64,000 nt of DNA from an uncultured Gammaproteobacteria bacterium (GCA_964385285.1 CAYLOJ010000002.1:559-64558); one strand, 5' to 3'. Positions 10,690-58,818 are shown, counted from the first letter of the stretch. Translations and numbers: made by a program. Notes: generated by a model not told the origin, from the sequence alone.

Positions 10690-10701
10690 GCTTAAAACCT
10701 A

Positions 10702-10767: not shown

Positions 10768-10848
10768 TTGCTGGGCAATGAACCTATTGCACCGCAAGCA
10801 GTGTTTCGACGTATTCACATAGCCAATGGGATAATGTAAAGGCCACCG

Positions 10849-10881
10849 GAAACATCGTCTCCGGTGGCCTTGCCGTGCCTC
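10849..10881 (-). terminator. Candidate terminator hairpin downstream of the GC-rich M23/MopE gene
   Basis: Perfect 12-bp stem AAGGCCACCGGA / TCCGGTGGCCTT with a 9-nt loop. The following U-tract on the minus strand is weak. Confidence 0.35.
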
Positions 10882-10945
10882 GCTTGGTCGACGCCTCGTC
10901 GCCGAGACGCCGACGCCTGTTGGGCACGGTGCCTACCTTCCCCCG

Positions 10946-13729: not shown

Positions 13730-13823
13730 GATGACCTCACAACAGATTGTAAAAGTACGTCCTAGCTAGGAGGATTCCTGAACTAGCCATACCAATCCAA
13801 TGGTTGGATTGGTAGTGGCCAAG

Positions 13824-31039: not shown

Positions 31040-31232
31040 AGACCCTGGTTTATCCTAAGCCATACCTTTACAACTTTTAGGGGAATCCGGTTAGAATCCG
31101 GAGCTGTGCCGCAACCGTATGTCTGAATGTTAGACGAGCCGGGATACCTCTTATCGTGTATGTTCTCGAGCAAGGACAGACGATCGATGTATCCTCATCT
31201 GTTGTCGTCCTGCTCTCAGCAGGATTTTTTTA
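31040..31232 (+). ncRNA. Cobalamin (B12) riboswitch with a terminator expression platform
   Basis: Core AGGGGAATCCGGTTAGAATCCGGAGCTGTGCCGCAACCGTATG is close to the E. coli btuB leader core (AGGGAATCCAGTGCGAATCTGGAGCTGACGCGCAGCGGTAAGG, as recalled). It is followed by terminator TCCTGCT-ctc-AGCAGGA + TTTTTTT at 31208-31231, 22 nt before the start of CDS 31253. Confidence 0.7.
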
Positions 31233-31252
31233 TTCTCTATCCAAAAGCCGAC

Positions 31253-31879
31253 ATGCTAAAACGCCTCATCACAATTTATCTCCCTATGCTGGTTGTGATT
31301 AGCGTTGCGTTCATCGCTGGCCGCCAATTGTATTACGATAATGATGTCACGTTGGATGATGTAGCATTCGTGGAATCATCGAATACTCTAAATAGCAATG
31401 CAAATGTAGTGCAGCCTGCTGATGAATCATTAAATACAGAGCAGATACCGGAAGATGCAGTACTTGTAAACACTGAAACTGTAGTTGCACCGGTAGATGC
31501 TGTAGAGACTGAGCCAGTCAAGGAGATTGTGGAGCCAGTAGCGGTGACTGAGCCAGAAGCAGAGGTGGTGACACAGAATGTGGTTGTCACGATCAGTGGA
31601 CCGGGGATCACTAAACGTTGTGTGGTGACATACACAGATGATTTATCTGTACATCAGTTGATGCAGCAAGCGAGTCAACAGTGCAATTTTGCTTACCGCG
31701 TTAAAGATTATACCTCTCTCGGTGCGTTTGTGGATGAGCTGGGTGGTGTGACTTCGAGTCGCAAAGAGGGGAGATACTGGATTTACTACGTGAATGGCAA
31801 AAAAGCAAACGTCGGTGTGTCGTCCTATACAGTGGCGCCGGACGATCTGGTGGCCTGGGTGTATGAGCAAGAATATTAA
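31253..31879 (+). CDS. DUF4430 (transcobalamin-like) domain protein, membrane-anchored; putative B12-binding surface protein
   Basis: N-terminal TM (MLKRLITIYLPMLVVISVAFIAG). C-terminus GAFVDELGGVTSSRKEGRYWIYYVNGKKANVGVSSYTVAPDDLVAWVY matches the DUF4430 signature (YW-Y-VNG ... GD-V-W-Y). Lies directly downstream of the B12 riboswitch. Confidence 0.6.
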   Translation: MLKRLITIYLPMLVVISVAFIAGRQLYYDNDVTLDDVAFVESSNTLNSNANVVQPADESLNTEQIPEDAVLVNTETVVAPVDAVETEPVKEIVEPVAVTEPEAEVVTQNVVVTISGPGITKRCVVTYTDDLSVHQLMQQASQQCNFAYRVKDYTSLGAFVDELGGVTSSRKEGRYWIYYVNGKKANVGVSSYTVAPDDLVAWVYEQEY

Positions 31880-31897: not shown

Positions 31898-33433
31898 GTG
31901 TATTTTATGAAACGTTATTTACTCAGCCTGCTCATGTTCGTAGTCGCTAGTCCGGCTGCGGCTAGTAGTTATATTCAAACTAATCTGCGCGTTGAGACTG
32001 CCGACGAGACAGTGTATGCCGGTGATGTCTACATCAGTTCCGATGGTTGCGCAGTACGCGACACAGATGGCGTGAAACATCAGATTGATGGTGCTGCAGC
32101 CGTCTGTGCGTTAAAAGCGGCTGCAACGCTAGGTGGCTTTGAGTATGCATTGCAAGATTCCAGTTACGGTTTATACCTAACGAGTGTGGATGGTCATGCT
32201 GCCACGAGTGCCGACTATTGGTCCTTCTTTGTGAACTATACCGTCGCTTCAACCGGCTTAACCGATTACACTTTGAGTAATGGTGACAATGTGATTTTGT
32301 CATTAGGCGGGTATCCCAATAATGCTTTAGAATTAAAAGTGCCTAGTAAACAAGTATTGGTCAATGAAAAATTGGTAGTGCGGGTGAAATCTAATGGTGA
32401 ACCGGTCAGTGGGGCAACGGTCCATTTTGGAGATGTGACGACGCAGACTGATAGTTTAGGAAAGGCTCGCTATACACCAACCGATACCACAAATGGTTTG
32501 GAGGTGTATGCTACTGCAGACGGAGCTACGCGTACTCCGACTGCAAGTATTCGTGTGATGCGCCGCTATACAGAGAATACTAGAGTGAACGTTGCTAATC
32601 AGCAGACGATGTTAACAGCAGCCGCAGATTTTTTACTGGCTCGTGTCGATGCCGATGGCATGATCTCGGGTAGTCAGAGTGTGACCGATTGGACAGCAAT
32701 TGCGTTTGCCAATGCAGGCATTACGGTTCCCGCAGCTATGCAAACTGCGGTCTTAGCTTACGATCCAACCATTGAGGTTGCCTATGCGACCAATGAAATC
32801 GCGCGTCATATTTTGGCTGTTGAAGCATTGGGCTATGATGCGACCGATCAAAACGGCGTCAATTATGTAGCCCGCTTGCTCAATACAAAGGCGCACGGTC
32901 AATTTGGTGATACTGCCTACGTCAATGATGATCTCTACGCTGGCTTAGCGCTATTGGCCGCTGGTGTTGCCAGTGATGATGCGGATGTATTGCGTGCTGT
33001 CACTGCTGCCAAAGACAGTCTGAATAGTGACGGTGGATTATCCTATGCTGTGGCGTTAGACGAAAGTGATAATGATACCACTGCCATTTTTGTACAGTTG
33101 CTTAGTAACATCGGTGATAATTCTAAGGCGTATCGCCAGGCAGTGCAGTATCTGCTCGATCAGCAAAACTATGATGGGGGTTGGGGCTACGATAATCATG
33201 GATTATCTAACTCCTCAAGCACAGCGGTAGTCTTACAGGCCTTGCATGCAGCTGGGTATACGCCTAATAAAGTACGCAGTAATCACCGCACAGGTTACAA
33301 CTTCTTAGCCTCGATCCAAAATAGTAATGGAGCTTTTGATTATGACGTGCTCGGCTCGTATAGTTACAAGACCTTAAATTCTGAAGCCGCCATTTTGGCC
33401 CTGGCCCACGCTTGGCTAGGTATGGTAGACTAA
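31898..33433 (+). CDS. Secreted protein: N-terminal DUF4430-like domain, CarboxypepD_reg-like domain, C-terminal prenyltransferase/squalene-oxidase-like alpha-alpha toroid repeats
   Basis: Signal peptide. The N-terminal block ending SADYWSFFVNYTVASTGLTDYTLSNGDNVILSLGGY is DUF4430-like. QW-type repeats (QQNYDGGWGYDNHGLSNSSSTAVVLQALHAAGY) are typical of the prenyltransferase-like toroid. Confidence 0.5.
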   Translation: MYFMKRYLLSLLMFVVASPAAASSYIQTNLRVETADETVYAGDVYISSDGCAVRDTDGVKHQIDGAAAVCALKAAATLGGFEYALQDSSYGLYLTSVDGHAATSADYWSFFVNYTVASTGLTDYTLSNGDNVILSLGGYPNNALELKVPSKQVLVNEKLVVRVKSNGEPVSGATVHFGDVTTQTDSLGKARYTPTDTTNGLEVYATADGATRTPTASIRVMRRYTENTRVNVANQQTMLTAAADFLLARVDADGMISGSQSVTDWTAIAFANAGITVPAAMQTAVLAYDPTIEVAYATNEIARHILAVEALGYDATDQNGVNYVARLLNTKAHGQFGDTAYVNDDLYAGLALLAAGVASDDADVLRAVTAAKDSLNSDGGLSYAVALDESDNDTTAIFVQLLSNIGDNSKAYRQAVQYLLDQQNYDGGWGYDNHGLSNSSSTAVVLQALHAAGYTPNKVRSNHRTGYNFLASIQNSNGAFDYDVLGSYSYKTLNSEAAILALAHAWLGMVD

Positions 33434-34025: not shown

Positions 34026-34040
34026 TCAGCAGACAGATCA

Positions 34041-34075
34041 ATAGAGACGTAGCTAGCTACGTCTCTATTTTTTTA
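34041..34075 (+). terminator. Rho-independent terminator after sod; TAGAGACG hairpin family
   Basis: ATAGAGACGTAGC-ta-GCTACGTCTCTAT followed by TTTTTTT. Confidence 0.75.
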
Positions 34076-34127: not shown

Positions 34128-35189
34128 ATGCTCACTGATCAGCCGGTTTGGCAAGCTTTATTTAATCACGTGCGCGAAGCCGTAGTTGTGATCGATAAAA
34201 ACGAGAAGATCGCAGATTGCAATGGAAGTTTTGTAGACTTGGCGCAGCAAGATCAAGCTGCAATGATTGGCAAAAGCTTGGACGAGATTTTACCATTACT
34301 GCAACCGAGCAGTAATCTCTCGGCTGCTTGGCAATATACACCTACGCATCAGTGGGTGACTACGCAAAAATTCAAACGGCCGAATAAGCTGGAGCAGGTG
34401 TCTATTGGTTTTCAAGTGGTGAAAACCGAAACAGACGATGAAGTCACAACCTTAGTGTTAATTCGTGATTTGACCCGCGAGCAAGAGCTCATGGAGCTGC
34501 GTTCTGAGTTTGTTTCCATTGTTTCGCATCAATTACGCACTCCGGCTTCTGCAGTGAAATGGTACTTAGAAACTTTAATCGACAATCGTCGCGGCAACGA
34601 ACTCAATGAATGGCAAGTAGATAAGCTACACCAAGCCTATCAAAGTAATGAACGCATGATCTCACTGATCAATGATCTACTGAATGTATCACGTTTAGAT
34701 TCTGGAAAATTCCTATTAAAACCGACCGAGGTATCGCTTTATAAATTATTCGAAGAGGTGAAGGACGAACTCTATCATTTTGCGCATGCACATAATGTTG
34801 ATATCGTGAATAAAGCTCCAGCCGATTTACCTGTGGTCTCGGCAGATAGGGATAAAGTCCGTGAGGTGATCTTAAATTTAGTGAATAACGCCATTAAGTA
34901 TAGTCCTCCTGGTCATCGTGAAGTGGTGATTAGTACACGCATCCAAGACGGTTTTGTGGAGAGCAGCGTACAAGATCAAGGCATTGGGGTTCCAGCTAAA
35001 GATCAGGCCCATTTATTTGAAAAATTTTACCGCGCTGATAATGCCATTGAATCACAAACCGAAGGCTCTGGCTTAGGCCTATATATTGCTCGTGAAATCG
35101 TCCGCCTCCACGGCGGTGATATTTGGCTTACTTCTAAAGAGGGAGTAGGAACCACAGTCTATTTTTCATTACCCATTTATGCCCATTGA
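34128..35189 (+). CDS. Cytoplasmic PAS-domain sensor histidine kinase
   Basis: No TM segment. H-box SHQLRTPASAVKWYLETL. N-box and G-box LNLVNNAIKYS, GSGLGLYIAREIVRLHGGDIW. Confidence 0.8.
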   Translation: MLTDQPVWQALFNHVREAVVVIDKNEKIADCNGSFVDLAQQDQAAMIGKSLDEILPLLQPSSNLSAAWQYTPTHQWVTTQKFKRPNKLEQVSIGFQVVKTETDDEVTTLVLIRDLTREQELMELRSEFVSIVSHQLRTPASAVKWYLETLIDNRRGNELNEWQVDKLHQAYQSNERMISLINDLLNVSRLDSGKFLLKPTEVSLYKLFEEVKDELYHFAHAHNVDIVNKAPADLPVVSADRDKVREVILNLVNNAIKYSPPGHREVVISTRIQDGFVESSVQDQGIGVPAKDQAHLFEKFYRADNAIESQTEGSGLGLYIAREIVRLHGGDIWLTSKEGVGTTVYFSLPIYAH

Positions 35190-35583
35190 TTTCAAATCCT
35201 ACACTATATTAATCGTCGAAGATGAATCCTTCTTATCCAAAGTGTTAGCGGAACGGATGGAAGATGAAGGATTTGGTCGCATTACTGTGGCTGGAAATGG
35301 CGAAGAAGCATTAGAACAGGTGAAGGCGCATATCCCCAACATCATTTTATTAGATATGATTTTGCCACGCATGAATGGTTTTGAGGTCTTAGAGCACTTG
35401 CAGGCTGATCCTAAATTCAAAAAAATTCCCGTATTAGTACTGTCGAATCTTGGTCAAGATCAAGATATTGAACAGGCTAAAACACTTGGTGCTACCGACT
35501 ACATCGTCAAAAGTAATTTCTCGTTACAGAAAGTTGTAGAAAAAATTGTCACTATTTTGTCAGCGACCACTCCTAAAGCTTAA
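35179..35583 (+). CDS. Receiver-only (CheY-like) response regulator
   Basis: ILIVEDE...LLDMILPRMNGFEVL...VLSNLG...TDYIVKS. 134 aa with no output domain. Overlaps the kinase stop. Confidence 0.75.
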   Translation: MPIDFKSYTILIVEDESFLSKVLAERMEDEGFGRITVAGNGEEALEQVKAHIPNIILLDMILPRMNGFEVLEHLQADPKFKKIPVLVLSNLGQDQDIEQAKTLGATDYIVKSNFSLQKVVEKIVTILSATTPKA

Positions 35584-35588
35584 CGTGT

Positions 35589-37259
35589 TTGACTATGCTC
35601 AGTGACGCCAAATTACAACAGATCATCAGTGAAACAAAGGTTGTGCCTGAGGCCGACTTAGCTGAAGCGCTTAGTTTTGCCCAGAAGGAGCAACGTCCAC
35701 TCGCAGATATTTTAGTCGAGCGCGATCTGTTATCCGATGAACAACTTGGTCAGTTGATTGCTGAACACGCCGGTTATGCATTTGTTAATTTGCGGAAGGT
35801 AAGTATTCCTGACGATGTTTTGCGTATTGTTCCAGAAAGCATGGCACGAGCGATGCGTGTCATCGCCTTTGGGCAAACTAGCCAATCCATTCAGTTGGCA
35901 ATGGCTAATCCGTTAGACGTTGCCACAGTTCACTTGATTGAGAAAAAAATAGGCAAGTTAGCAGAGGTAGCATTCGCAACCGATCGCGATGTACGTGACG
36001 CCCTGGGTTACTATAAACGGGGATTACAATTTGAATTTGCAAAGTTAGTGGAAGATAAATTAGGCGGTAACGATGCCACTCCGCCCGTCGTAGAGTTGTT
36101 AGAAATCATGGTGCAGTATGCCTATTTGCAAAAAGCCTCCGATATTCATATTGAGCCCACAGATGACAATGTAGTGGTGCGGTTCCGTGTTGATGGTGTG
36201 CTGCATGACATGGTTAAGTTGCCCAAACATCTCTTGGAAACCTTGATTACACGTATTAAAATTTTAGCTAAACTCCGTACCGATGAACATCGCTCTGCAC
36301 AGGATGGGAAAATGGTACAAAAATTAGAACAAGAAGATCTAGATATTCGTGTTTCCATTCTGCCTGTGTCCGAAGGGGAAAAGGCAGTTTTGCGTTTGTT
36401 ATCTAGTCGATCACGTCAGTATGCATTAGAAGATATTGGCTTTGGATCAAGCGATGTTGAACGCGTACGTAAATATTTGAAACGTCCTCAAGGCATGATT
36501 TTAGTGACTGGACCTACCGGTTCGGGTAAGACGACAACATTGTATGCGTTTTTGAAAATTCTAAATCGCCGTGAGGTGAATATTTCTACGATTGAGGATC
36601 CTGTGGAATATGCGATCGCTGGGATTAATCAAATTCAGGTCAACGCTGCTACTAATCTAACTTTTGCAACTGGCTTGCGCTCCATTGTCCGGCAAGATCC
36701 TGACATTATCATGATTGGAGAAATCCGTGATCAAGAAACAGCTAGTATTGCCGTGAATTCGGCAATGACTGGCCACTTGGTGTTATCCACGTTGCACACG
36801 AATGACGCAGCAACAACGTTGCCACGGTTACTGGATATGCAAGTAGAGCCCTACTTGGTTGCATCTACAGTGAACATCGCCGTGGGGCAACGGTTAGTAC
36901 GAAAAATTTGTACTCAATGTGTGATGAGTGAGGTAGTGACCGGGGATCAGATGAAAGAGTTGATGCAGCAATTCCACTTGGAGAAATATATCAAAAAGGA
37001 TGCGAAGCAGTTACGCTTCTATAAAGGCCGTGGTTGCAACAGTTGTAATCATTCCGGTTACGTAGGTCGAGTAGGTGTATTTGAAGTGCTAGAGATGTCT
37101 ACGGCAATTCGCCAGTTGATTTTAAATCATGCTGATTCCGATCAGATTAAGCAGCAAGCCATTAAGGAGGGGATGACCACTATGTTTGAAGATGGTTTTC
37201 ATAAAGCTTTGTTGGGGGTAACAACCTTAGAAGAGGTTTTACGCGTCGTGGCTGAATAA
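35589..37259 (+). CDS. pilB: Type IV pilus assembly ATPase PilB (GspE family)
   Basis: GSPII_E N-terminal domain, Walker A GPTGSGKTTTLYA, and a tetracysteine motif CTQC...CNSCNHSG. Confidence 0.85.
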   Translation: MTMLSDAKLQQIISETKVVPEADLAEALSFAQKEQRPLADILVERDLLSDEQLGQLIAEHAGYAFVNLRKVSIPDDVLRIVPESMARAMRVIAFGQTSQSIQLAMANPLDVATVHLIEKKIGKLAEVAFATDRDVRDALGYYKRGLQFEFAKLVEDKLGGNDATPPVVELLEIMVQYAYLQKASDIHIEPTDDNVVVRFRVDGVLHDMVKLPKHLLETLITRIKILAKLRTDEHRSAQDGKMVQKLEQEDLDIRVSILPVSEGEKAVLRLLSSRSRQYALEDIGFGSSDVERVRKYLKRPQGMILVTGPTGSGKTTTLYAFLKILNRREVNISTIEDPVEYAIAGINQIQVNAATNLTFATGLRSIVRQDPDIIMIGEIRDQETASIAVNSAMTGHLVLSTLHTNDAATTLPRLLDMQVEPYLVASTVNIAVGQRLVRKICTQCVMSEVVTGDQMKELMQQFHLEKYIKKDAKQLRFYKGRGCNSCNHSGYVGRVGVFEVLEMSTAIRQLILNHADSDQIKQQAIKEGMTTMFEDGFHKALLGVTTLEEVLRVVAE

Positions 37260-37262: not shown

Positions 37263-38327
37263 ATGCGGAATATCGAGCTATCATTTTGGGTGAATCGCAA
37301 GGATGTAGCTTTTTTTACCAAGAATTTTTCCGTGATGCTGGGTGCTGGTTTGACGGTTGTGGAATCGCTGGCCGTTTCAGAAGAACAGACACACGGTAAG
37401 CTACGACGTATTATTCGCAACATGCGTTTATATGTGGAGCAGGGCAATCAATTAGCTGACGCGTTCGCAAAATATCGCCGGCAGTTCTCTCCAGTATTTG
37501 TGGACGTCATTCGTACTGGTGAGTTTTCTGGCAACTTAACGCGTAACGTGCAGCAGTTGGCCAATCGTTTGACGGATGATTTAGAGTTACGGCGCAAGAT
37601 TCGTGGCGCGATGATCTATCCGATGGTCATACTTGCTGGCATTATCGCCCTAGGCACAGTATTATCATTGTTTGTCATGCCCAGATTCATTCGTTTGTTT
37701 AGTTCCCTGGAGGTGGAGTTACCATATTTAACACAGATCACGCTGAAAGTTGCTGGTTGGATGCAAACGTATTGGTGGTGGTTCCTGTTTGCTTGTGTCA
37801 TCGCTGGCATCATCGGCAAGCTATTACTCCGTATTGCTACTCTTGAGCGATTCTGGCATGCCGTGTTGGTGCGACTTCCCATTATCGGTCCGATGATTCG
37901 ATCGATTAATTTAGCTCGGTTCACTGGCACATTAGGTTCACTGTTGAGTAGTGGAGTGCCGATTAGCGAAGCTTTACATTCGGTGGTTCATTCTTGTACC
38001 AATTTATCGTATCAGTATAGTATCCGACGTGCGCTACAGGCTGTAGAAGATGGTGGTAGTTTATCCTCGGTGATTGCGCGAGAGGCATTATTATATCCGC
38101 CGTTAGTAATTCGCATGGTAGCGGTGGGTGAGCGCACGGGGCAACTAGCTGAGTTGCTGAGTTATTTGGGACATTATTATGAAGGAGAAGTAGACAGTAC
38201 GACTAAGCAGTTGGGTGTGTTAATTGAGCCTGTCTTACTATTTGTGATCGGCGCAGTGGTGCTGATTATTGGCTTGGCAGTGATTACCCCGATTTATCAA
38301 TTCACTGCCTCTGTTGGGGCTTTATAA
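37263..38327 (+). CDS. pilC: Type IV pilus platform protein PilC (GspF family)
   Basis: Two GspF-like repeats with 3 TM helices. Lies immediately downstream of pilB. Confidence 0.8.
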   Translation: MRNIELSFWVNRKDVAFFTKNFSVMLGAGLTVVESLAVSEEQTHGKLRRIIRNMRLYVEQGNQLADAFAKYRRQFSPVFVDVIRTGEFSGNLTRNVQQLANRLTDDLELRRKIRGAMIYPMVILAGIIALGTVLSLFVMPRFIRLFSSLEVELPYLTQITLKVAGWMQTYWWWFLFACVIAGIIGKLLLRIATLERFWHAVLVRLPIIGPMIRSINLARFTGTLGSLLSSGVPISEALHSVVHSCTNLSYQYSIRRALQAVEDGGSLSSVIAREALLYPPLVIRMVAVGERTGQLAELLSYLGHYYEGEVDSTTKQLGVLIEPVLLFVIGAVVLIIGLAVITPIYQFTASVGAL

Positions 38328-38329: not shown

Positions 38330-38776
38330 ATGGGCGTGGCCCGGGGTTTTTCTTACATTCAACTCCTACTCGTCATCACCATGTTGGCGGTATTGGCTGC
38401 AGTGGCTTCGCCGTATTATTTATCGTGGCAAACTCGTCAGCAAGTGCGTAGTACTAGTGCGATGTTATGGTCAGATCTTCACTATGCGCAAAGTCGAGCC
38501 ATGCAACTTGAACAATCGGACGCATGGGGCGTGCATATAAATCAGAGCCAACATGAATATGTGATTTTTCATGGTTCTACTTATGACAGTAGCGATCTCT
38601 ATAACGAAACAATTACCTATTCAGACGGCGTGACGATTACACCAGATACAGACATTGCATTTGCAGGTTTAACAGGCGCAGTTGCTAGTGACCTTACCTT
38701 AACCATTACGGCTAATGCCTTACCGAGTGAAAGCCGAACCATTACGATCAATGAAGAAGGTCTCATTTCACAATAA
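38330..38776 (+). CDS. Prepilin-type N-terminal domain protein (minor pilin/pseudopilin; Gln rather than Glu at +5)
   Basis: MGVARG^FSYIQLLLVITMLAVLAAVASPYY. Confidence 0.45.
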   Translation: MGVARGFSYIQLLLVITMLAVLAAVASPYYLSWQTRQQVRSTSAMLWSDLHYAQSRAMQLEQSDAWGVHINQSQHEYVIFHGSTYDSSDLYNETITYSDGVTITPDTDIAFAGLTGAVASDLTLTITANALPSESRTITINEEGLISQ

Positions 38777-41700
38777 TTCATCCGGGATATTAATCGTTGA
38801 GGCGGTCATTAGTATTGCTTTATTTGTGATATTTGCAGCCGGAGCGATCTACCTTTTAACTGCTTCTATTTTAACTAGTCGCACCGCACAACGTCATGCC
38901 ACAGCAGCAGCTTATGCGACCGAAGCAATTGAAGCAGTACAAACCATTGACCGGTTAGCTTGGAATGCATTAGCGGATAGTCCAGATAGTACATACGGCT
39001 TGGCTCTATCTGGTGATGATTGGACGCTCACTGCTGAGCCAGATCATCCTGATCTTGCTGGAGACTACACGCGCACCATTCAAATCAGTGATGTCTATCG
39101 TGATAGCAGTAATCTGATCACGGATACGGAGACGGGAAATACATTCGATCCTCATACACGCAAGGTCAATGTTACGATCGATTGGTCAAATGATACTGGT
39201 ACAGCACAGAGTCTAACCACTGCTACCTATTTAACCGATTGGGATGACTCGGCGTTGCAAGAGGATCTGGTGACCGATTGGACAGCGGGAACAGTTGATC
39301 ATTTGCGGGTCAGTAATCTAGATGATGGCGAACTGCAAATAGTACAACCCACTTTAGAGATCGGCACCGTCACCGCCACCAATAGTTGGCAGACCATTAC
39401 GTTATCCAATGAGTATGACGAGGCGGTTGTCGTAGCAAGTGTGTTAGATGGTAATAACCCAAATTCACCGGTGAGTGTACGGGTGCGCAACGTTACGGCC
39501 ACCACCTTTGATCTGCGCTTACAATTTCCAACTGATAACTTTGCACCTAGCACCACGAATAGTGAGCAGGTCAATTATATGGTCATTGAAGCTGGTGTCT
39601 GGACACTGGGAGATGGTAGTACAAAAATTGAAGCGGGGATTGTTCCGTCTGTTTCGCGCGTGAATTGTTCTACCTGTGGTAGCTGGAATCAGGGCACAGA
39701 TGTCTATTTTCAGAGTGGCTTTAGCACGGGTCCTGTAGTGTTACATCAAGTGATGACTGAGAATGATGCTTCGTGGATTACCACGTTTGCGTCGGATGAT
39801 ACCAATGCAGCACTGCCACCTGGCACAGATGGATTTCAAGTGGCATTAAATGGTGCTGAGGTGACTGCTGCGCATAGTGCCGAAGATATCGGCTATATCG
39901 CTTTTCAAAGTGAAACGACAGATCGTTTTGAAGGAGTTAAATTTGAAACCGATCTGACTGGCAATACGGTACGTGGTGCAACGGATGTGCATCGGGTTGA
40001 AAATTTTGATCAAACTTATACTGCCGCACCCATTGTGTTGACTAGCATGTTAACCGCACGTACTACGGAAGGTAACTGGGCTATGTTAGATAGTGTCACA
40101 GCCACGCGTGTCACGCTTTATGCAGATGAAGATCAAACCCTAGATGCAGAACGCACGCATGCTGTTGATTACGCTGGCTATGTGACCTTTGCGACAACCG
40201 GTACGTATTATTTAAACGCGGCCATTACTGCGTATGATGAACCACCCATGGAAGTGGGAGTGATCCGCGGCAGTGCGTCGGGACATATGGAGGTGGGCAC
40301 GACCACGGCGTCGAGTAGTTGGTCAACCATTACATTAACGAATACATACACTAAGCCAGTGGTGATTGTGAGTTTATTGGATGGCAATAATCCGAATAGT
40401 CCAGTTTCCACGCGCGTCAAGAATGCCAGTGGCAATAGTTTTGAGGTGCGTTTAGATTTTCCTAACGATCGCTTTGCGCCGGTCACTACGAATAGTGAGA
40501 CGGTCTATTACATGGTTGTGGAGGCTGGTGTTTGGTTAATGGGTGATGGTAAAACAAAGGTGGAAGCCAATATTGCTGAAGATGTTTCTCGGGTGAACTG
40601 TTTTACCTGTGGTTCATGGAATAATGGTACGCAGATTGTACACACCAGTGGTTACAGTGCCAATCCCGTATTTTTGCATCAAGTGATGAGTGAGAATAGT
40701 TCAGCTTGGATCAGCTCCTTTGCTTCCAATAGTACGGATTATCGTAGCCCACCAGGCACGAATGGTTTTCGCATTGCACTGAACGGTGCTAGTGTCACCT
40801 CCACCCATGCCGCAGAAGACATCGGTTATGTGGTAATGGAGACAGAAAAAGTGGACACTGCTAATAGTATTCAGTATGAGACAGATACCACAGGGATTAG
40901 TGTACGTGGCTTCGACGATGCGCGTTACAGTGAAAGTTTTGATCAAGCCTATACTACAGCTCCATTAGTATTGGTTTCACAGTTAGGCATGCGTGGCACC
41001 GAGGGAAGTTGGGCGATGATAGATAGTATTACTACTACCACCCTCACTATGTATGAAGATGAGGATCAAGCAACCGATCGTGAACGGTCGCACCAAGCGG
41101 AATATTACGCGTATTCGGCATTTGCATCCGCGGGTAGCTTCACTCTAACGGATCAGACGTTTTTGCAAAATCCAGTGAGTATTTCTTTGAATAATACCTA
41201 CACGAATCCCGTGGTCATCACGACTCCATTTTTTACGAATGATCAAAATTCGCCAGCGTCAGTACGGGTGTATGATGTGACTAGTAATAGTTTTACAGCA
41301 AAACTAGATTTTCCAACTGATCGTTTTACACCTACCAATACCAGCTATTCTAACGATGTGTATTATATGGTGATTGAAGCGGGGACCTGGCAAATTGGTG
41401 ATCTGAAGATTGAAGCTCATGTGGACAATATTTCTACTGTGAATTCATTAACGAATGGATGGACCGGCACAACCACAACTTTTGATCATGCCTTTACGGC
41501 TGCACCCATTGTATTGCAACAAGTGATGAGTAATAGTGATACGGCCTGGATTACCACCTGGCTCGCGCGCACGGCTGATCGCACTAATCCTCCTTCCTAC
41601 ACCTCAATGCAGATCGGTTTGAATGCAGCTGAGGTGGCCACAAGTAATGCGCATGGTCCGGAAGATGTGGGTTGGGTCGCCTTTTCGAACATTGGGTCTG

Positions 41701-42338
41701 GCACTGTAGATGCATATGATTTTAGAACTTTCTTTCAGTTAGATTTGCCGTTTGGGCATCAAAATGGTTGCTATACATTTACACCTGGTGATACCTATGC
41801 TGATCCGATTCCACTCATTTCACAAATGAGCATGGATGGAGCGGAGGGTTCGTGGCCTTCGATCTGTTCATTATCTACTACGACGGTTGGTGTGCACGTG
41901 GAAGAAGATGATTATTTAGATAGCGAGCGCTCGCATACAGATGAGGCCATTGGCGCTATTGTCTTTGATGGTGCATTTGCCTATGCAGGCAGCACTAACC
42001 CAGATAACCATACCAGTGGTACCTATGAATCTCCGGTATTAGGTGATAGCGCACTCTGGCGCAACTTCAATATTGTGCAATGGGTAGAAGATATCGATTG
42101 TGCCAATTGTGCAATCGAAATCCAGGTGCGGACAGGCGATTCTGTTGGGGCAGTCGGCAGCGCTACCTACATTGGTCCGGATGGTACTGCTGATACCTAT
42201 TATGATAGCTCTGCTGGGGCACTACTTAGCTTAGAACATCTGAGCCAGCCCTATATTCAGTATCAGGTCACCATGCGTGGTTCTACGGTGCGTTCGCCAA
42301 TATTTTACGATGCTACCATTTGGGGCTATGCACAATAA
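38751..42338 (+). CDS. Giant pilin-like protein (1196 aa) with a prepilin N-terminus and three tandem ~280-aa internal repeats (putative tip adhesin)
   Basis: MKKVSFHNNSSG^ILIVEAVISIALFVIF has Glu at +5. Repeats at about 39365-40205, 40297-41125 and 41166-41960 share W-TI-L-N-Y-PVV...GNNPNSPVS-RV, YMV-EAGVW-GDG-TK-EA, SRVNC-TCGSWN and FDQ-YT-AP-VL...TEG-WAM-DS. Confidence 0.5.
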   Translation: MKKVSFHNNSSGILIVEAVISIALFVIFAAGAIYLLTASILTSRTAQRHATAAAYATEAIEAVQTIDRLAWNALADSPDSTYGLALSGDDWTLTAEPDHPDLAGDYTRTIQISDVYRDSSNLITDTETGNTFDPHTRKVNVTIDWSNDTGTAQSLTTATYLTDWDDSALQEDLVTDWTAGTVDHLRVSNLDDGELQIVQPTLEIGTVTATNSWQTITLSNEYDEAVVVASVLDGNNPNSPVSVRVRNVTATTFDLRLQFPTDNFAPSTTNSEQVNYMVIEAGVWTLGDGSTKIEAGIVPSVSRVNCSTCGSWNQGTDVYFQSGFSTGPVVLHQVMTENDASWITTFASDDTNAALPPGTDGFQVALNGAEVTAAHSAEDIGYIAFQSETTDRFEGVKFETDLTGNTVRGATDVHRVENFDQTYTAAPIVLTSMLTARTTEGNWAMLDSVTATRVTLYADEDQTLDAERTHAVDYAGYVTFATTGTYYLNAAITAYDEPPMEVGVIRGSASGHMEVGTTTASSSWSTITLTNTYTKPVVIVSLLDGNNPNSPVSTRVKNASGNSFEVRLDFPNDRFAPVTTNSETVYYMVVEAGVWLMGDGKTKVEANIAEDVSRVNCFTCGSWNNGTQIVHTSGYSANPVFLHQVMSENSSAWISSFASNSTDYRSPPGTNGFRIALNGASVTSTHAAEDIGYVVMETEKVDTANSIQYETDTTGISVRGFDDARYSESFDQAYTTAPLVLVSQLGMRGTEGSWAMIDSITTTTLTMYEDEDQATDRERSHQAEYYAYSAFASAGSFTLTDQTFLQNPVSISLNNTYTNPVVITTPFFTNDQNSPASVRVYDVTSNSFTAKLDFPTDRFTPTNTSYSNDVYYMVIEAGTWQIGDLKIEAHVDNISTVNSLTNGWTGTTTTFDHAFTAAPIVLQQVMSNSDTAWITTWLARTADRTNPPSYTSMQIGLNAAEVATSNAHGPEDVGWVAFSNIGSGTVDAYDFRTFFQLDLPFGHQNGCYTFTPGDTYADPIPLISQMSMDGAEGSWPSICSLSTTTVGVHVEEDDYLDSERSHTDEAIGAIVFDGAFAYAGSTNPDNHTSGTYESPVLGDSALWRNFNIVQWVEDIDCANCAIEIQVRTGDSVGAVGSATYIGPDGTADTYYDSSAGALLSLEHLSQPYIQYQVTMRGSTVRSPIFYDATIWGYAQ

Positions 42339-43250: not shown

Positions 43251-44279
43251 ATGCGCATCTTAGGACTCAATTTATCTGATGCTTCCGCCGAACTTGTCGA
43301 ATTGAGTGGTGGTTTATTGCAACGTCCAGGTTGGACCACACATCTTCGAGTTGAGCTATCGGAAGGGATCGTAACGAACGGCATTATTCATGATGTCAGT
43401 CTATTGGCGAGCAAGTTAAAAGGGCAGTTTCGCCCGGGCAATTTAGCGATGTCCATTCCTGAATCTCAAGTGTATTCCCGTTGGTTGCGTTTTCCTGCCA
43501 AGACAAAACTCAGTGAAATTCGCGCGACGATCGCTCAACATGCGGCTGAATATTTTCCGTTTGAGGCTCATGAGATTGTGTTTGATTGCGTTTCCGCTGG
43601 CCAACACGGAGAATCGCAAGATGTCTTTACAGCAGCTGTACCACATTTGGTTTTGAATAGCTACCGTGAATTTGCTAAGGCTTTGGATTGTACATTAGTT
43701 AGGTTAGAACTAGAGTCACTTAGTTCTGCCCGCGCGACTCTACCTAGTTTGCCTAAGGTCGGCGCTACGCTATTATTAGATATTGGAGCACGGACTACAA
43801 TCGCCAGTTGGTTTACTGATCAGGGTTTGCGTTTCACGTTCAATGTGCCGTTGGCAGGGCAATATTTTACCGAACGGATTCAGCAAGGCTTAAAATTGAC
43901 TGCACTAGAAGCCGAGCGTCTGAAGCAAACACAGGGACTCAGCGGAAAAGTGGAATCAGTGTTAGTTGCGGCTTTAGAACCATTGGTGAAGTCGCTGAAT
44001 GAGGGGATTAGTTATGTGCAATCAGAGTGGCAGATTGATACCAAAGCAATCGTATTGATTGGCGGGTCTTCCCAGTTGCCAAAATTAGCGGATTATCTAG
44101 CCACTCAATTTCAGGTTACTACCAACTTACCACCAGCGTTGCCCTGGCAAACCACATATGGTATGGTATCTGCGTCAGATCAGGAGGGGAATTATATGCT
44201 TAATGCCGTAGGGTTAGCCCTAGGTGAGCTAAAGGCCTATCGTGACTGGCCAACCGTTAACTTTTTAAATACAAAATAA
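43251..44279 (+). CDS. pilM: Type IV pilus assembly protein PilM (actin-like ATPase)
   Basis: N-terminus MRILGLNLSDASAELVEL. C-terminal LIGGSSQLPKLADYLATQF. Actin/Hsp70-like fold within the pilus operon. Confidence 0.7.
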   Translation: MRILGLNLSDASAELVELSGGLLQRPGWTTHLRVELSEGIVTNGIIHDVSLLASKLKGQFRPGNLAMSIPESQVYSRWLRFPAKTKLSEIRATIAQHAAEYFPFEAHEIVFDCVSAGQHGESQDVFTAAVPHLVLNSYREFAKALDCTLVRLELESLSSARATLPSLPKVGATLLLDIGARTTIASWFTDQGLRFTFNVPLAGQYFTERIQQGLKLTALEAERLKQTQGLSGKVESVLVAALEPLVKSLNEGISYVQSEWQIDTKAIVLIGGSSQLPKLADYLATQFQVTTNLPPALPWQTTYGMVSASDQEGNYMLNAVGLALGELKAYRDWPTVNFLNTK

Positions 44280-44765: not shown

Positions 44766-44790
44766 ATAGTCCAATCATCATCATAAAGAA

Positions 44791-44821
44791 ATAGAGACGT
44801 AGTATTACGTCTCTATTTTTG
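44791..44821 (+). terminator. Rho-independent terminator after pilA; TAGAGACG hairpin family
   Basis: ATAGAGACGTA-gtat-TACGTCTCTAT followed by TTTTT. Confidence 0.75.
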
Positions 44822-48134: not shown

Positions 48135-50750
48135 CTACTTGCTGCGTTTTTGATCAACGACGGTAATGGCTTGTTCTAGCGTGATGCTTTCAGGTGGAAT
48201 TTCCTTGGGAATGGTCGCATTCACTTTGCCACATTTTAGGTAAGGACCATATTTACCGTTACACACTTGAATCGCTGCTTTCAGTTGTGGATGCTCACCC
48301 AAGATTTTTAACACCGTGGTGCGACGACCTTTGATTTTGGGAGTATCCAACATGGCAATGGCTCGCTCGGCAGTTAAGGTCAGTAAATTATCTTCCGGAC
48401 TCAAGCTCCGTGTCTCGATGCCACAACGGATATACGGACCAAACCGACCATTGTCTGCAATCATTGCTTCTCCAGTTTTGGGGTAAGGTCCTAAATTTTT
48501 TGGGAACGCCAATAACTGCAAAGCAATTTCTAAAGTGACATCCGTTGGCAACATTCCTTTTAACAAACCTTTCATTTTTGGTTTGATCAGTTTGGCTTTT
48601 TTTACTTTCTTTGGCTTCTTAGTCTTTGTATCAGTGACTTCGATGTTCGCAGGGTCTACAACAACTTCTGGTGCAGAGGTTTGTTTGTCACCTAATTGGA
48701 CATAAGGACCAAATCGACCATCTAGCAAATAGACCGGCTTACCAGAGTTAGGATCTGTGCCCAGTGGGGTTGGTCCCGCTGCGCGTTTTGTAATGAAATC
48801 TAAAGCTTGTTCGACGGTTAACTCATCGGGAGCAATAGTATCAGGAATACTAGCCGTTTTTTCACCTTCAGATAACACCTGTTCCACAAATGGACCAAAC
48901 CGACCAACGCGCACATTGATGGCATGACCGTCCTGGTCATGGCCAATCGGAATAGTGCAGGTGGCACGGGGGTCAATTTCTACATTCAACATGTCATGTA
49001 GCCCAGTGTGCTCTGGAGAACCAAAGTAAAATTGCTTTAAATAGGGGATCGATTCGATTTCACCAGCCGCAATGCGATCTAAATCTTCTTCCATGGCCGC
49101 CGTATAGTGCGTGTTTACCAAGTTAGAAAAATTATTACCCAGCAAGGCATCCACTGCAAAGGCCACGAACCGTGGTACTAGCGCACTACCTTGTTTATAC
49201 ACATAACCACGATTTTGAATTGTATCAATAATGGTTGCATAGGTACTAGGACGTCCAATGCCGTCACTTTCTAATTGTTTGATTAGCGAGGCTTCGGTAT
49301 AACGGGCCGGAGGCTTGGTGTTGTGTTCATCTGCCTGGGCAGTAGTGGATTGAACGGAGTTGCCAGCACTGACCGCTGGTAATACCATTTCAGCTTCATC
49401 TGCCTCATCTGTGCTTTCTGCATAGGCCTGCATATAACCTGCAAACTGAACGGTGCGGCCACTGGCCTGAGCAACAACATCATCCCATGTTAACTGAATT
49501 GAGGTTTGTTGCAGTTTTGCATCAGCCATTTGGGAGGCGACAGTACGTTTCCAAATCAGATCATACAAACTGGCTTCTTCACCGCCCAATGCGTCGCCGA
49601 TATCTTCTAAACTGCGCATCTCTTTACCAGCGGGACGAATCGCTTCATGTGCCTCTTGTGCAGATTTGTTCTTATTTTTGTATTGACGAGGTTCGGGGGT
49701 TAGAAAACGATCACCATACAGCTTAGAAATTTTTTGCCGGGCTGCTTGAATGGCTTCGGCCGATAACGTCACGGAATCAGTACGCATGTAGGTAATAAAT
49801 CCATGTTCATAGAGCCGTTGAGCAGTACGCATCGTTTTGCCGGCGGGCCAACCCAATTTTCGTCCGGCATCTTGCTGTAGGGTACTAGTAATAAATGGAG
49901 GTTTGGGAGTCAGGGTTAATGGTTTTTGTTGGACATCTGCTACCTGCCAAGTTTGTGGTGCAACACGTTGGGCTAAGTTCTGACTCGCCTGATGATCTAG
50001 TACTATGACTTCATCCGCGACTTTGGCTAACACAGCGCCACTGGTGCTATCAAAATCTTTTGTGCCTGCGATGCGTTTACCAGCAACCGTATGGATTTTA
50101 CCCGTAAATGTTGTGGCATCATGCTGATAACTGACGGTGACATCATGATAGACTGAGCTATGGAATGCCATCCGACTTTTCTCACGTTCAACAATCACGT
50201 GTAACGCCGCGCTCTGTACACGACCAGCTGACAACTTTGGAGCAACTTTTCGCCACAGCACTGGAGAGATCTCGTAACCATATAAGCGATCCAAAATACG
50301 GCGGGTTTCCTGTGCAGAGACAAGATGCATATCCACTGTGCGGGGATGCTCAAGGGCTGCCAAGATCGCTTCCTTAGTGATTTCATGAAACACCATGCGT
50401 TTAATGGGCACTTTGGGCTGCAACACTTCTAGCAGGTGCCAACTAATGGCCTCTCCTTCGCGGTCTTCGTCAGTTGCCAGATAAACCTCTTCAGCTTCTT
50501 TGACTAATTTTTTCAATTCAGCAATGTGCTTTTTTTTGGCGCTCGGAACAATATAAAGTGGTTGAAAATCATGATCTACATCAATACCCAAGCGTGCCCA
50601 TTTTTCCTTTTTGTATTGGGCGGGGATCTCTGTAGCAGATTGTGGTAGATCTCGAATATGACCTAAGCTAGACTCCACGACGTAACCAGCCGGTAGGAAT
50701 TTTTTAATCGTCTTAGCTTTGGTTGGACTTTCCACAATGACCAGCTTCAT
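48135..50750 (-). CDS. topA: DNA topoisomerase I
   Basis: TOPRIM MKLVIVESPTKAKTIKKFL, a topoisomerase IA core, and C-terminal zinc-ribbon/Topo_C repeats (GRFGPYV... x3). Start placed at Met13 of the annotated ORF. Confidence 0.85.
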   Translation of the reverse strand: MKLVIVESPTKAKTIKKFLPAGYVVESSLGHIRDLPQSATEIPAQYKKEKWARLGIDVDHDFQPLYIVPSAKKKHIAELKKLVKEAEEVYLATDEDREGEAISWHLLEVLQPKVPIKRMVFHEITKEAILAALEHPRTVDMHLVSAQETRRILDRLYGYEISPVLWRKVAPKLSAGRVQSAALHVIVEREKSRMAFHSSVYHDVTVSYQHDATTFTGKIHTVAGKRIAGTKDFDSTSGAVLAKVADEVIVLDHQASQNLAQRVAPQTWQVADVQQKPLTLTPKPPFITSTLQQDAGRKLGWPAGKTMRTAQRLYEHGFITYMRTDSVTLSAEAIQAARQKISKLYGDRFLTPEPRQYKNKNKSAQEAHEAIRPAGKEMRSLEDIGDALGGEEASLYDLIWKRTVASQMADAKLQQTSIQLTWDDVVAQASGRTVQFAGYMQAYAESTDEADEAEMVLPAVSAGNSVQSTTAQADEHNTKPPARYTEASLIKQLESDGIGRPSTYATIIDTIQNRGYVYKQGSALVPRFVAFAVDALLGNNFSNLVNTHYTAAMEEDLDRIAAGEIESIPYLKQFYFGSPEHTGLHDMLNVEIDPRATCTIPIGHDQDGHAINVRVGRFGPFVEQVLSEGEKTASIPDTIAPDELTVEQALDFITKRAAGPTPLGTDPNSGKPVYLLDGRFGPYVQLGDKQTSAPEVVVDPANIEVTDTKTKKPKKVKKAKLIKPKMKGLLKGMLPTDVTLEIALQLLAFPKNLGPYPKTGEAMIADNGRFGPYIRCGIETRSLSPEDNLLTLTAERAIAMLDTPKIKGRRTTVLKILGEHPQLKAAIQVCNGKYGPYLKCGKVNATIPKEIPPESITLEQAITVVDQKRSK

Positions 50751-50758
50751 AAAAAAAG

Positions 50759-58473: not shown

Positions 58474-58818
58474 TTGTTTATGGATCCACGCCTACATACA
58501 TATTTAAAGCATCTGCTTAATACAGCTCACCATTTACAGGGTGATCGCACGATGCCCGCACCGTTAGCTGAAAAAATGCTTGCGGATCTTCATATTCAGC
58601 TGGAACAGCGCTTAACTGCAACCTTAGTAGATCAATTGCCAGAAGAGGATCAAGAGGCGTTTGCAGCCCTAACTGCCACTACACCTGATCAAAAAGCGGT
58701 GTTTGATTTTTTGAATGCCAAAGTCCCGAATGCGGAAGCAGTCATACAGGTTGTTTTAGTAAAATTTGAAGAGGACTATATTAGTATTGTGAATCGCGGT
58801 AAAGCCAATGCCAATTAG
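58474..58818 (+). CDS. Small hypothetical protein (114 aa), translationally coupled to the giant ORF
   Basis: ORF overlapping the next gene's start by 11 nt. No recognised motif. Confidence 0.35.
   Translation: MFMDPRLHTYLKHLLNTAHHLQGDRTMPAPLAEKMLADLHIQLEQRLTATLVDQLPEEDQEAFAALTATTPDQKAVFDFLNAKVPNAEAVIQVVLVKFEEDYISIVNRGKANAN

Follow-up and report, generated by a model that had tools for sequence, protein, structure and literature searches.

H-type lectins, CofB and the fibre feet of phages and pyocins are homotrimers whose ligands are bound in distal loops or where two protomers meet. The closest precedent for the protein described here is CofB of ETEC, a type IVb minor pilin with a tip-trimerising H-lectin domain; it is both initiator and tip subunit, and its C-terminal H-type lectin trimer has its sites at the protomer interfaces (PMC6048534). 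Modular type IV pilins are widespread, also in the CPR, with examples such as PilB (vWA) and PilC (ConA-like lectin) of S. sanguinis (Raynaud et al. 2021; PMC8179133). In Saccharibacteria TM7x, PilX2 is needed for efficient host binding, with which sugars compete (PMC11623550). H-type lectins, discoidin and the foot domains of pyocins and phages belong to one fold class; the trimeric, discoidin-like lectin that forms the R-pyocin foot is proposed by the authors of that study to be an LPS-core-binding domain, and pyocin and phage feet and H-type lectins act as receptor-binding tips for cell-surface carbohydrates (PMC6363177). Lectin-bearing type IV minor pilins are already known, and the fused 3x3 form reported here varies that theme.

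We analysed a 64-kb stretch of DNA (the window) in which a type IV pilus operon contains a giant pilin gene. Its product probably serves a Kerfeldbacteria-like member of the Patescibacteria (CPR) as a modular type IV minor pilin that carries lectin modules as cargo at the pilus tip, adheres to glycans and so tethers the cell. The open reading frame given in a preliminary description of this DNA is intact, and its translation has 1195 rather than the 1196 residues stated there; the gene does overlap the pseudopilin gene before it by 26 nt. A longer reading from the ATG at 38715 gives 1207 aa and is the version deposited in NCBI (P0001). Judged by orthologue N-termini, the start at 38751 is preferred, and the predicted cleavage site is identical for both. 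Conservation along the protein is uniform (53–68%), with no hypervariable module, a pattern more in keeping with a structural role or a conserved ligand than with an adhesin caught in an arms race.

Table 1. Features of the giant pilin gene and its operon, in window coordinates (a slash marks the predicted prepilin cleavage site).
Feature	Position	Strand	Remarks
Terminator-like hairpin, 13-bp stem	34040..34069	+	Upstream of operon; 12-nt arm AATAGAGACGTA
Sensor histidine kinase-like protein	34128..35189	+	First gene of operon; visible H-box/HATPase motifs; counterpart in L001 (HisKA, HATPase_c)
Response-regulator receiver protein	35179..35583	+	From sequence; L001/L002 counterparts carry PF00072
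PilB-type assembly ATPase (T2SSE + MshEN)	35589..37259	+	E=1.9e-127
PilC platform protein (T2SSF)	37263..38327	+	E=5.5e-55
Minor pilin 1, 148 aa	38330..38776	+	G/FSYIQ; weak sub-threshold GspH/ComGD similarity
Giant modular minor pilin, 1195 aa	38751..42338	+	Open ORF
Leader peptide MKKVSFHNNSSG	38751..38786	+	Ends in Gly-1; predicted prepilin peptidase site
Pilin module	38787..39260	+	Glu+5, long alpha1 helix, small beta head ending near residue 170
Module 1 (aa 196-489)	39336..40217	+	A 39354-39614, B 39615-39926 (CxxC), C 39927-40205
Module 2 (aa 504-800)	40260..41150	+	A 40287-40547, B 40548-40859 (CxxC), C 40860-41138
Module 3 (aa 798-1081)	41142..41993	+	A 41142-41402, B 41403-41705, C 41706-41981
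C-terminal beta-sandwich, ~115 aa	41985..42338	+	Invariant C1117/C1120
Minor pilin 3, 165 aa	42343..42840	+	G/FSLFE; N_methyl
Minor pilin 4, 132 aa	42837..43235	+	G/YAALI; without Glu+5
PilM, actin-like assembly protein	43251..44279	+	PilM_2, E=1.1e-17
Major pilin, 160 aa	44283..44765	+	G/FTLVE; domain and NCBIfam scans
Terminator-like hairpin, 15-bp stem	44787..44820	+	Directly after major pilin gene

The N-terminus of the giant pilin reads MKKVSFHNNSSG/ILIVEAVISIALFVIFAAGAIYLL, with the motif G12/ILIVE17 (that is, MKKVSFHNNSSG/ILIVEA). A short basic leader ending in Gly, a hydrophobic stretch of ~20 residues and Glu+5 together make up a class III prepilin signal. Such a signal had been proposed earlier, and the proposal stands, since the orthologues retain the same glycine and glutamate: no pilin-type homologue whose N-terminus is intact has lost G-1 or E+5 (~30 homologues). 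A profile of the N-terminal family matches solved type IV pilins at E-values spanning 4e-4 to 0.08, among them Geopilin (E=4e-4), PilA (0.009) and the CFA/III pilin (0.02), and a profile search with the head domain gives no match past alpha1. The N_methyl models PF07963 and TIGR02532 leave the giant pilin itself unmatched (Pfam E<=1; NCBIfam E<=0.1); homologues P0022-25, P0027 and P0029 do score with them. In the full-length AlphaFold model, a 50-residue N-terminal helix (residues 15–64) is followed by strands at 84–171, with a local pLDDT of 51–79, giving the lollipop fold of a long alpha1 helix on a beta-sheet head. The pilin module is conserved across about 45 giant Patescibacteria pilins.

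Three tandem modules of ~285 aa make up most of the remaining chain. Modules 1 and 2 are 57% identical over 287 aa (E=3e-121), modules 1 and 3 are 37% identical (E=2e-48) and modules 2 and 3 are 38.5% identical (E=1e-54). The divergent tandem repeats of the preliminary description are thus genuine, all three pairs aligning at E<=2e-48, far past chance, and its boundaries lie close to those set here by HMM. Its Cys pair in repeats 1 and 2 is likewise present, as a CxxC (VNCSTCGSW and VNCFTCGSW) confined to these two modules. Module 3 has no CxxC and carries the family-typical pair C1007/C1039 in subdomain C; the equivalent pair is the strongest coevolving one of the module family. The module is always found whole (HMM positions 1–289), in 1–6 copies per protein. 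The comparison for variation in repeat number proposed there showed none: all 24 orthologues have all three modules, which are position-orthologous among clade members and have been divergent since before the clade radiated. A ~115-aa domain that matches no known family always occupies the extreme C-terminus within the giant-pilin family. This domain and the N-terminal pilin module are the constant parts of the roughly 45 giant pilins; the middle differs, and in relatives it consists of other carbohydrate-binding-type domains (LamG/ConA-like, GH115_C, pentraxin).

Each module is itself a triplication of ~90-aa paralogous subdomains, A-B-C, giving nine lectin-like domains in all (3x3). By hhalign, A and B are related with a probability of 97.2% (E=4e-11), A and C with 93.3% (E=3e-7) and B and C with 95.8% (E=8e-9), at 15–21% identity. 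The repeats had earlier been described as matching no recognisable family; they are H-type-lectin-like. The Pfam model PF09458 (H_lectin) gives the whole giant pilin a marginal score of 24.8 bits (cutoff 24), to which no one stretch contributes a significant match by itself, and homologues reach 26–36 bits; taken one at a time, 21 of 42 modules match it at E<0.1, the best at 3e-6. The top four PDB matches of the subdomain-A profile are Helix pomatia and Helix aspersa agglutinins (E=0.018–0.033, 66 of 86 positions), an HMM alignment to HPA that is too weak (E~0.02) for the transfer of site residues.

Structure prediction of one repeat followed by a fold search, as the preliminary description had proposed, returned lectin and receptor-binding fibre-tip folds. 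Foldseek matched the R2 pyocin foot (probability 0.99), phage AP22 gp53 (0.91, TMt 0.50) and the coral lectin SLL-2 (3wmp_A; 0.82, TMt 0.63), together with many phage ‘H-type lectin’ or ‘gp53-like’ tail-fibre tips, among which viral models reach a probability of 0.99. The subdomains have the small antiparallel beta-sandwich common to HPA, discoidin and SLL-2. Nothing in the PDB matches the whole module by profile or Foldseek search; one viral protein matches it in its entirety (E=1e-18, TMq 0.80). The module also has the invariant acidic/His motifs EDQxxDxERxH, and its single-module AlphaFold model is that of a rigid unit (pLDDT 94.9, pTM 0.93).

Since H-type lectins, CofB and phage and pyocin feet are homotrimeric, subdomains A, B and C of a module presumably form a pseudo-trimer within one chain, with pseudo-C3 packing. 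Mean-field DCA of 394 modules recovered the Cys–Cys pair at the top rank, as a positive control, and gave strong A–B, B–C and A–C couplings, including S34–T235 at rank 3 (z=12). Coevolution of all three subdomain pairs suggests a closed pseudo-trimer, although the lone strong A–C coupling could instead reflect contacts between successive modules.

The module family extends far beyond pilins. It comprises 7,320 clusters at 50% identity, mostly non-pilin secreted proteins, and is not defined as a unit in InterPro/Pfam. Carriers occur in Patescibacteria, Proteobacteria, Acidobacteriota and Planctomycetota, in an archaeon and in at least one virus. We tentatively propose, with somewhat less than even confidence, that this is an undescribed and very large family of fused, single-chain pseudo-trimers of H-type lectins, which on this pilin would solve a stoichiometry problem and whose three diverged copies would form a multi-specific tip. 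If true, a tip complex with one copy per minor pilin could display a three-chain lectin, and three diverged copies in series would give an episymbiont a programmable, multi-specific tip.

The operon is ordered HK-RR-PilB-PilC-mp1-GIANT-mp3-mp4-PilM-major pilin, the giant pilin gene being the second of four minor-pilin genes, and from PilB to the major pilin the genes overlap or are separated by gaps of <=15 nt. The hairpin downstream of the major pilin gene marks the operon end; its 12-nt arm is common to the hairpin upstream of the operon. Two distant Patescibacteria loci (L001 and L002) have the same gene order at 37% and 35% identity, and in L001 a kinase and response regulator occupy the same operon position. 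Four consecutive pilin-like genes, the last without Glu+5, are found in the window, L001 and L002 alike, the core pattern of the reference minor-pilin sets GspH-I-J-K, FimU-PilV-W-X and ComGD-E-F-G, in which the giant pilin would fill the GspI/PilV/ComGE slot. Minor pilin 3 has weak, sub-threshold similarity to ComGE/GspI/PRK10557. Neither minor pilin 4 nor its counterpart in L001 or L002 has Glu+5, which makes minor pilin 4 a candidate for a GspK/PilX-like cap. No prepilin peptidase (Peptidase_A24) was found among the ORFs scanned in the window.

In the proposed mechanism, a prepilin peptidase would cut the giant pilin after Gly12, and its pilin module (alpha1 with Glu+5 plus the beta head) would join the three neighbouring minor pilins in a priming complex. 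This complex would end at the pilus tip, with the giant pilin directly beneath the cap pilin that lacks Glu5 (minor pilin 4), and ~1000 residues of cargo would extend from the N-terminal anchor. At the level of sequence and model, the cargo consists of three rigid ~285-aa modules followed by the 115-aa C-terminal beta-sandwich. With each A-B-C unit acting as a pseudo-trimer within one chain, one copy of the tip pilin could present complete lectin sites, and the three diverged modules could provide up to three specificities, or multivalency. The predicted ligands are glycans on the surface of a host or partner cell, or some other substrate, and the pilus would tether the ultrasmall cell to that partner, host or substrate.

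The module is carried mostly by proteins other than pilins, which counts against an adhesin reading, as does CofB, which shows that a pilin with an H-lectin fold is not always a sugar binder; the CofB trimer takes the N-terminal peptide of CofJ in its would-be GalNAc pocket, and GalNAc itself is not bound (PMC6048534). The modules could likewise have been repurposed to dock a protein or peptide that is secreted, on the model of CofB-CofJ in ETEC and TcpB-TcpF in V. cholerae, making the pilin a carrier rather than an adhesin. Their uniform, fairly high conservation would suit a conserved protein partner; however, the operon has the same content across three distant loci and holds no candidate gene for a secreted partner, and thousands of proteins other than pilins have the module, as do phage fibres, for which glycan receptors are the usual ligands. 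We consider docking unlikely. A trifle harder to credit is that the modules serve mainly as a rigid stalk or spacer that projects the conserved C-terminal head beyond the S-layer or enlarges the tip complex. The specificity of modular pilins and flagellin-like proteins is usually borne by the variable middle, the alternative middles of the relatives are of carbohydrate-binding type, and a spacer would not need a lectin fold with an invariant acidic/His motif; these points weigh more with us than the rigidity of the module, the constancy of both terminal domains around a varying middle and a copy number fixed at three within the clade.

It is improbable that the giant pilin remains unpolymerised, relies on its class III signal for nothing more than export and membrane anchoring, in the style of the sugar-binding proteins of the archaeal ‘bindosome’, and works as a cell-surface lectin. 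In each of three distant genomes its gene keeps the same place in the set of four minor-pilin genes that lies between pilC and pilM, and the protein retains the Glu+5 required for subunit–subunit contacts in the filament, in the face of its extreme size among pilins (125 kDa), the failure of the N_methyl models to score it and the absence of PilD from the window. No Secretin domain turned up among the window ORFs scanned, and CPR cells are not known to have an outer-membrane secretin, which would bar a bulky tip. CPR are also thought to scavenge nucleic acids, and the weak likeness of minor pilin 1 to ComGD/GspH and a dprA gene 6 kb downstream on the opposite strand could point to a competence pilus for DNA uptake, with the giant pilin as receptor for DNA or another substrate. 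This is very improbable, because all-beta lectin-type domains with conserved acidic residues are not known to bind DNA, and because nothing resembling ComZ, ComP or another DNA-binding pilin came up in the Pfam, PDB-profile and Foldseek searches. Most likely, the giant pilin is a candidate sugar-binding adhesin at the type IV pilus tip. A pilus-borne adhesin was already the candidate role in the preliminary description, and it is favoured by the lectin fold of the repeats, the conserved slot in the minor-pilin cluster and the precedents of CofB (PMC6048534) and TM7x PilX1/X2 (PMC11623550).

The giant pilin resembles CofB of ETEC CFA/III and TcpB of the V. cholerae TCP in that a pilin module bears a domain of H-type-lectin fold, presumably at the tip, and CofB is among the Foldseek matches of the full-length model, weakly (4qs4/5ypz, E=0.26). 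CofB/TcpB have the order pilin, beta-repeat, single homotrimerising H-lectin domain, so that three chains with one lectin domain each are needed, whereas the giant pilin fuses three paralogous domains and repeats the unit three times. Its leader is short (12 aa), unlike theirs, its gene belongs to a T4a/Com-like operon that encodes four minor pilins plus PilM, whereas a T4b operon has a single minor pilin, it has an additional conserved C-terminal domain compared with CofB, and profile and sequence searches detect no sequence similarity between the two. On the operon type, the 12-aa leader, the 3x3 fused domains and the lack of sequence similarity, we rejected membership in the CofB/TcpB family. 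The ~1000-aa cargo is far bigger than that of the modular pilins of Raynaud et al. 2021, and a pilin with a variable middle and a conserved C-terminal domain is an architecture specific to a Patescibacteria family. TM7x is likewise a CPR bacterium with type IV pili, and its largest minor pilin has a lectin-like C-terminal domain (PMC11623550), but PilX1/PilX2 carry single accessory domains, an L-type lectin jelly roll and a PLL-type beta-propeller instead of H-type lectin triplets, and occupy a different locus slot (named PilX). The modules are like HPA, discoidin I/II, SLL-2, the R1/R2 pyocins and AP22 gp53 in subdomain fold and sequence profile. Those H-type lectins and fibre feet are homotrimers of separate chains, whereas the copies in the giant pilin are covalently linked and diverged, so that the three interfaces of each A-B-C unit would be non-equivalent.

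The gene of the giant pilin is an uninterrupted forward-strand ORF at 38751-42338 (1195 codons), with a G+C content of 46%, the same as its flanks, and an unremarkable composition. An in-frame ATG at 38715 yields a 1207-aa version that is the NCBI deposit (P0001, 100% identity); the N-termini of orthologues favour the shorter leader. The 26-nt overlap with the upstream gene, reported in the preliminary description, is real because the end of that gene, which encodes a pilin-like protein of 148 aa, lies at 38776. The prepilin signal described there was likewise borne out: the N-terminus reads MKKVSFHNNSSG^ILIVEAVISIALFVIFAAGAIYLL, with Gly-1, Glu+5 and a hydrophobic stretch of ~25 residues, and every pilin-type homologue whose start is intact keeps G^(I/V/F/M)xxxE. 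Curated N_methyl models did not score the giant pilin itself; they do score homologues that can be aligned with it end to end. When the first ~195 residues of 15 family members were made into a profile, it matched solved type IV pilins across the leader and alpha1 (Geopilin, E = 4e-4; PilA, 0.009; CFA/III pilin, 0.02; TcpA, 0.08). In the full-length AlphaFold model (23 orthologues; pLDDT 81, pTM 0.50), a 50-residue helix (15-64) and a small beta head (84-171) form a pilin lollipop; behind it come three blocks that are all beta and, at the C-terminus, a beta-sandwich (1088-1194). The pilin head of two relatives outside the window (P0156 and P0033) is split (query 12-119 / 127-195) by ~220-270-aa insertions; therefore, cargo insertion is possible inside the pilin module too.

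The three tandem divergent repeats noted earlier, R1 to R3, were recovered by pairwise BLASTP with E-values from 3e-121 (R1-R2, 57% identity over 287 aa) to 2e-48 (R1-R3, 37%; R2-R3, 38.5%, E = 1e-54). The Cys pair ascribed to repeats 1 and 2 is a CxxC (VNC-S/F-TCGSW) confined to them, while R3 instead holds the pair typical of most family members (GHxNGC...C). The columns of this R3-type pair are the most strongly coevolving in the module family (z = 20, mean-field DCA), which is consistent with a disulfide. Profiles of the three ~90-aa thirds of the repeat, subdomains A, B and C, align with one another in hhalign (probabilities of 97.2, 93.3 and 95.8%; E = 4e-11, 3e-7 and 8e-9) and have the motif pattern "Y..P.V(L)...-W-...-F.v.L-...-E..gY.a.e" in common. 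These alignments show that each ~285-aa repeat, or module, is an internal triplication, so that the giant pilin has nine related domains in a 3 x 3 arrangement.

The repeat domain had been thought to match no recognised family. This was wrong: similarity to H_lectin was found with Pfam, profiles and Foldseek, and the domain is not an orphan. H_lectin (PF09458) is the sole Pfam match of the giant pilin (24.8 bits vs a gathering score of 24); its homologues score 26-36 bits, 21 of 42 diverse modules match (best 3e-6), and one orthologue, P0014, is already titled 'H-type lectin domain-containing protein' at NCBI. The Helix pomatia and Helix aspersa agglutinins are the founding H-type lectins, and they supply the four best PDB matches of the subdomain-A profile (66 of 86 positions), at only E ~0.02. 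PDB sequence searches with profiles of the whole module, the nine pooled subdomains and the C-terminal domain found nothing meaningful.

A structure model of the module from 42 sequences (pLDDT 94.9, pTM 0.93) had no whole-module neighbour in the PDB by Foldseek; its single-domain matches of high probability were the R2 pyocin fibre (0.99) and the coral H-type lectin SLL-2 (0.82, TMt 0.63). The full-length model matched AP22 gp53 (0.91); the CofB, pyocin and gp53 matches were weak, and the rest were uninformative. R2 pyocin, SLL-2 and gp53 have one trimeric 'discoidin-like lectin' fold for receptor binding (Salazar et al., PMC6363177). In a viral model library, Foldseek returned a single match to the whole module (E = 1e-18, TMq 0.80) and, besides it, many tail-fibre tips whose annotation is H-type lectin or gp53-like. 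None of 50,697 phage genomes matched module 3 in tblastn.

We infer that the A-B-C triplet is a single-chain pseudo-trimer. The pTM of the module model means that the three subdomains are fixed relative to one another, and the module is always found whole. We applied mean-field DCA to 394 non-redundant modules with gap-filtered columns (an unfiltered run was dominated by gap artefacts), and the Cys pair was recovered as a control. Strong couplings connect A with B (A3-B6 and A5-B3 among them) and B with C (B5-C4/C5), and an A-C coupling, S34-T235, ranks 3rd of about 29,000 pairs. Couplings across all subdomain pairs are as expected for a closed triangular packing, not a rod. Alternatively, the A-C coupling could arise from contacts of consecutive modules.

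The surrounding operon is compact (intergenic gaps of at most 15 nt, or overlaps) and runs histidine kinase, response regulator, PilB, PilC, minor pilin 1, giant pilin, minor pilin 3, minor pilin 4, PilM and major pilin. PilB matches T2SSE (E = 2e-127), PilC matches T2SSF, minor pilin 3 matches N_methyl, and the major pilin has the motif G^FTLVE. The order is conserved at the loci of two homologues, P0022 (37% identity) and P0027 (35% identity), with the giant pilin in the second minor-pilin slot. Minor pilin 4 lacks Glu+5 at all three loci (G^YAALI, G^YIALV and G^FVALF), an absence that is the defining mark of the GspK/PilX cap subunit. Minor pilin 1 (38330-38776) has Gln at +5 (G^FSYIQ), so that two of the operon's four minor pilins lack Glu5; its counterparts at the other two loci, L001 and L002, carry Glu there (G^FTLVE). 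A scan of ORFs in the window turned up no secretin, PilN/O/P, PilT or prepilin peptidase. Two hairpins with the same 12-nt arm, which occurs only in these two copies in the 64-kb window, bracket exactly the histidine kinase-response regulator-type IV pilus operon. They could be related terminators, or else mark the boundaries of a cassette.

Modules of the giant pilin (aa) and other features of the window (nt)
Feature	Position	Strand	Remarks
Module 1	aa 196-489		HMM boundaries
Module 2	aa 504-800		HMM boundaries
Module 3	aa 798-1081		HMM boundaries
tRNA	9481-9552		inside G+C-rich stretch
DUF6602/SEC-C protein	9802-10689		inside G+C-rich stretch
927-aa ORF	10946-13729	-	inside G+C-rich stretch; Peptidase_M23 and MopE metal-binding motif
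259-aa protein	29454-30233	-	Asn/Ser/Thr/Ala low-complexity region NANSNANKNKNANANKN... behind membrane anchor
Cobalamin riboswitch aptamer	31081-31148	+	38 bits vs gathering score 31.5
Two DUF4430 genes	31127-31879, 31898-33433		after cobalamin riboswitch
Terminator-like hairpin, strong	34040-34069	+	12-nt arm AATAGAGACGTA
Terminator-like hairpin, strong	44787-44820	+	identical 12-nt arm AATAGAGACGTA
Topoisomerase I	48135-50786	-	few kb from pilus operon
DprA (DNA-processing protein A)	50759-51634	-	E = 4.5e-69
1479-aa ORF	58808-63247	+	unmatched in Pfam, even at E <= 0.001

Elsewhere in the window, the two DUF4430 genes with their riboswitch look as if they serve B12 binding or uptake in a reduced genome; an alpha-toroid of prenyltransferase/squalene-cyclase-like type is also present in the second of them. 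The stretch at ~8000-14000 has a G+C content of 51-55% vs about 45% elsewhere, and may be an acquired island. The gene of the 259-aa protein adjoins an M23 peptidase gene. The 1479-aa ORF has no obvious signal peptide, and the lectin module and both pilin-family domains are absent from it.

The 24 orthologues comprise sequences of 47-77% identity and a clade at 37%; every one is 1166-1218 aa long with three modules, and the repeat-number variation between strains suggested for comparison is absent among them. Modules at the same position are 63% (m1-m1), 63% (m2-m2) and 60% (m3-m3) identical among orthologues, and 36-55% identical between positions. The modules are position-orthologous; therefore, the triplication is old. 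Copy-number variation is absent, and nothing points to concerted evolution. Conservation along the protein is even (53-68%), and no hypervariable regions were found among the orthologues. By genome title, these belong to Candidatus Kerfeldbacteria or 'Patescibacteria group'. Five loci from metagenome bins (L006, L007, L010, L012 and L014) have clear orthologues and a Patescibacteria-type operon, yet are titled 'uncultured Gammaproteobacteria bacterium', probably through a bulk-submission taxonomy error.

About 45 other giant Patescibacteria pilins have the N-terminal pilin module and a ~115-aa C-terminal domain in common, with middles that vary (one or two modules, LamG, pentraxin, GH115_C or LVIVD). 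The module itself is very widespread: at E <= 1e-3 it occurs in 7,320 cluster representatives, and at E <= 1e-30 still in 2,925. Most carriers are large proteins with a Sec signal; among the best 179, prepilin-type carriers make up only about a fifth, and the neighbourhoods of non-pilin carriers are unrelated. A 475-aa protein of Shimia litoralis (L036, 5998-7425) has one N-terminal triple-lectin module and no signal peptide; its C-terminal stretch (CFTAGT...) resembles, by eye, a Hint (intein-like) domain. Comparable single-module matches come from Ruegeria, Phaeobacter, Roseivivax and Primorskyibacter, among them the cultured Ruegeria halocynthiae (L051) and Primorskyibacter sedentarius (L040). 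A link to the MSHA-pilus protein MshQ, suspected from DUF6701 in the proteins P0034 and P0035, was rejected: P0034 stands alone without pilus neighbours, NCBIfam names none of these proteins, and a literature search on MshQ brought up nothing relevant.

In the mechanism that we propose, the giant protein acts as a modular minor pilin, whose pilin module would join a four-pilin priming/tip complex, below the Glu5-less cap, and whose cargo, three pseudo-trimeric lectin units and the conserved terminal domain, would project from the pilus tip and bind glycans on the partner-cell surface. The lectin fold and the operon support the earlier idea of a pilus-borne adhesin, for which the giant pilin is a candidate. 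The modules might instead dock a partner, which is unlikely, or serve as a spacer, which we consider rather unlikely, and it is improbable that the protein is a membrane-anchored lectin. The proximity of DprA and topoisomerase I may bear on a possible DNA-uptake role of the pilus; that the giant pilin is a DNA receptor seems highly improbable.

Patescibacteria depend on attachment to other cells, and type IV pili are the best-supported device for it. To our knowledge, only for one Saccharibacteria strain is there much information on the targets of their pilus tips, and we know of no cultured member of Kerfeldbacteria. The giant pilin is a concrete, conserved candidate for tip recognition in this group, and giant pilins reveal a probable tip design in which carbohydrate-binding-type cargo is swappable between constant pilin and C-terminal domains. 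What is new is the nesting of H-lectins in a 3 x 3 pattern, together with how large the unannotated module family is. The triple-lectin module is common yet unannotated, and once it is defined, thousands of giant surface proteins could be better annotated. Because the module is present in cultured Rhodobacteraceae (such as Shimia, Ruegeria and Primorskyibacter), its ligand is accessible to experiment.

The H-lectin domain of CofB, the type IVb minor pilin of ETEC CFA/III, must trimerise at the pilus tip (PMC6048534). The giant pilin resembles CofB as a minor pilin with H-lectin-like domains, with a tip site that is proposed here, but differs in that the trimer would sit in one chain, three times over. 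Given the CofB precedent, the pocket of the giant pilin may bind peptide instead of sugar. Its modular build parallels that of modular pilins generally (PMC8179133), and Saccharibacteria offer a further parallel in their lectin-like PilX pilins, one of which, PilX2, is required for binding to the host (PMC11623550).
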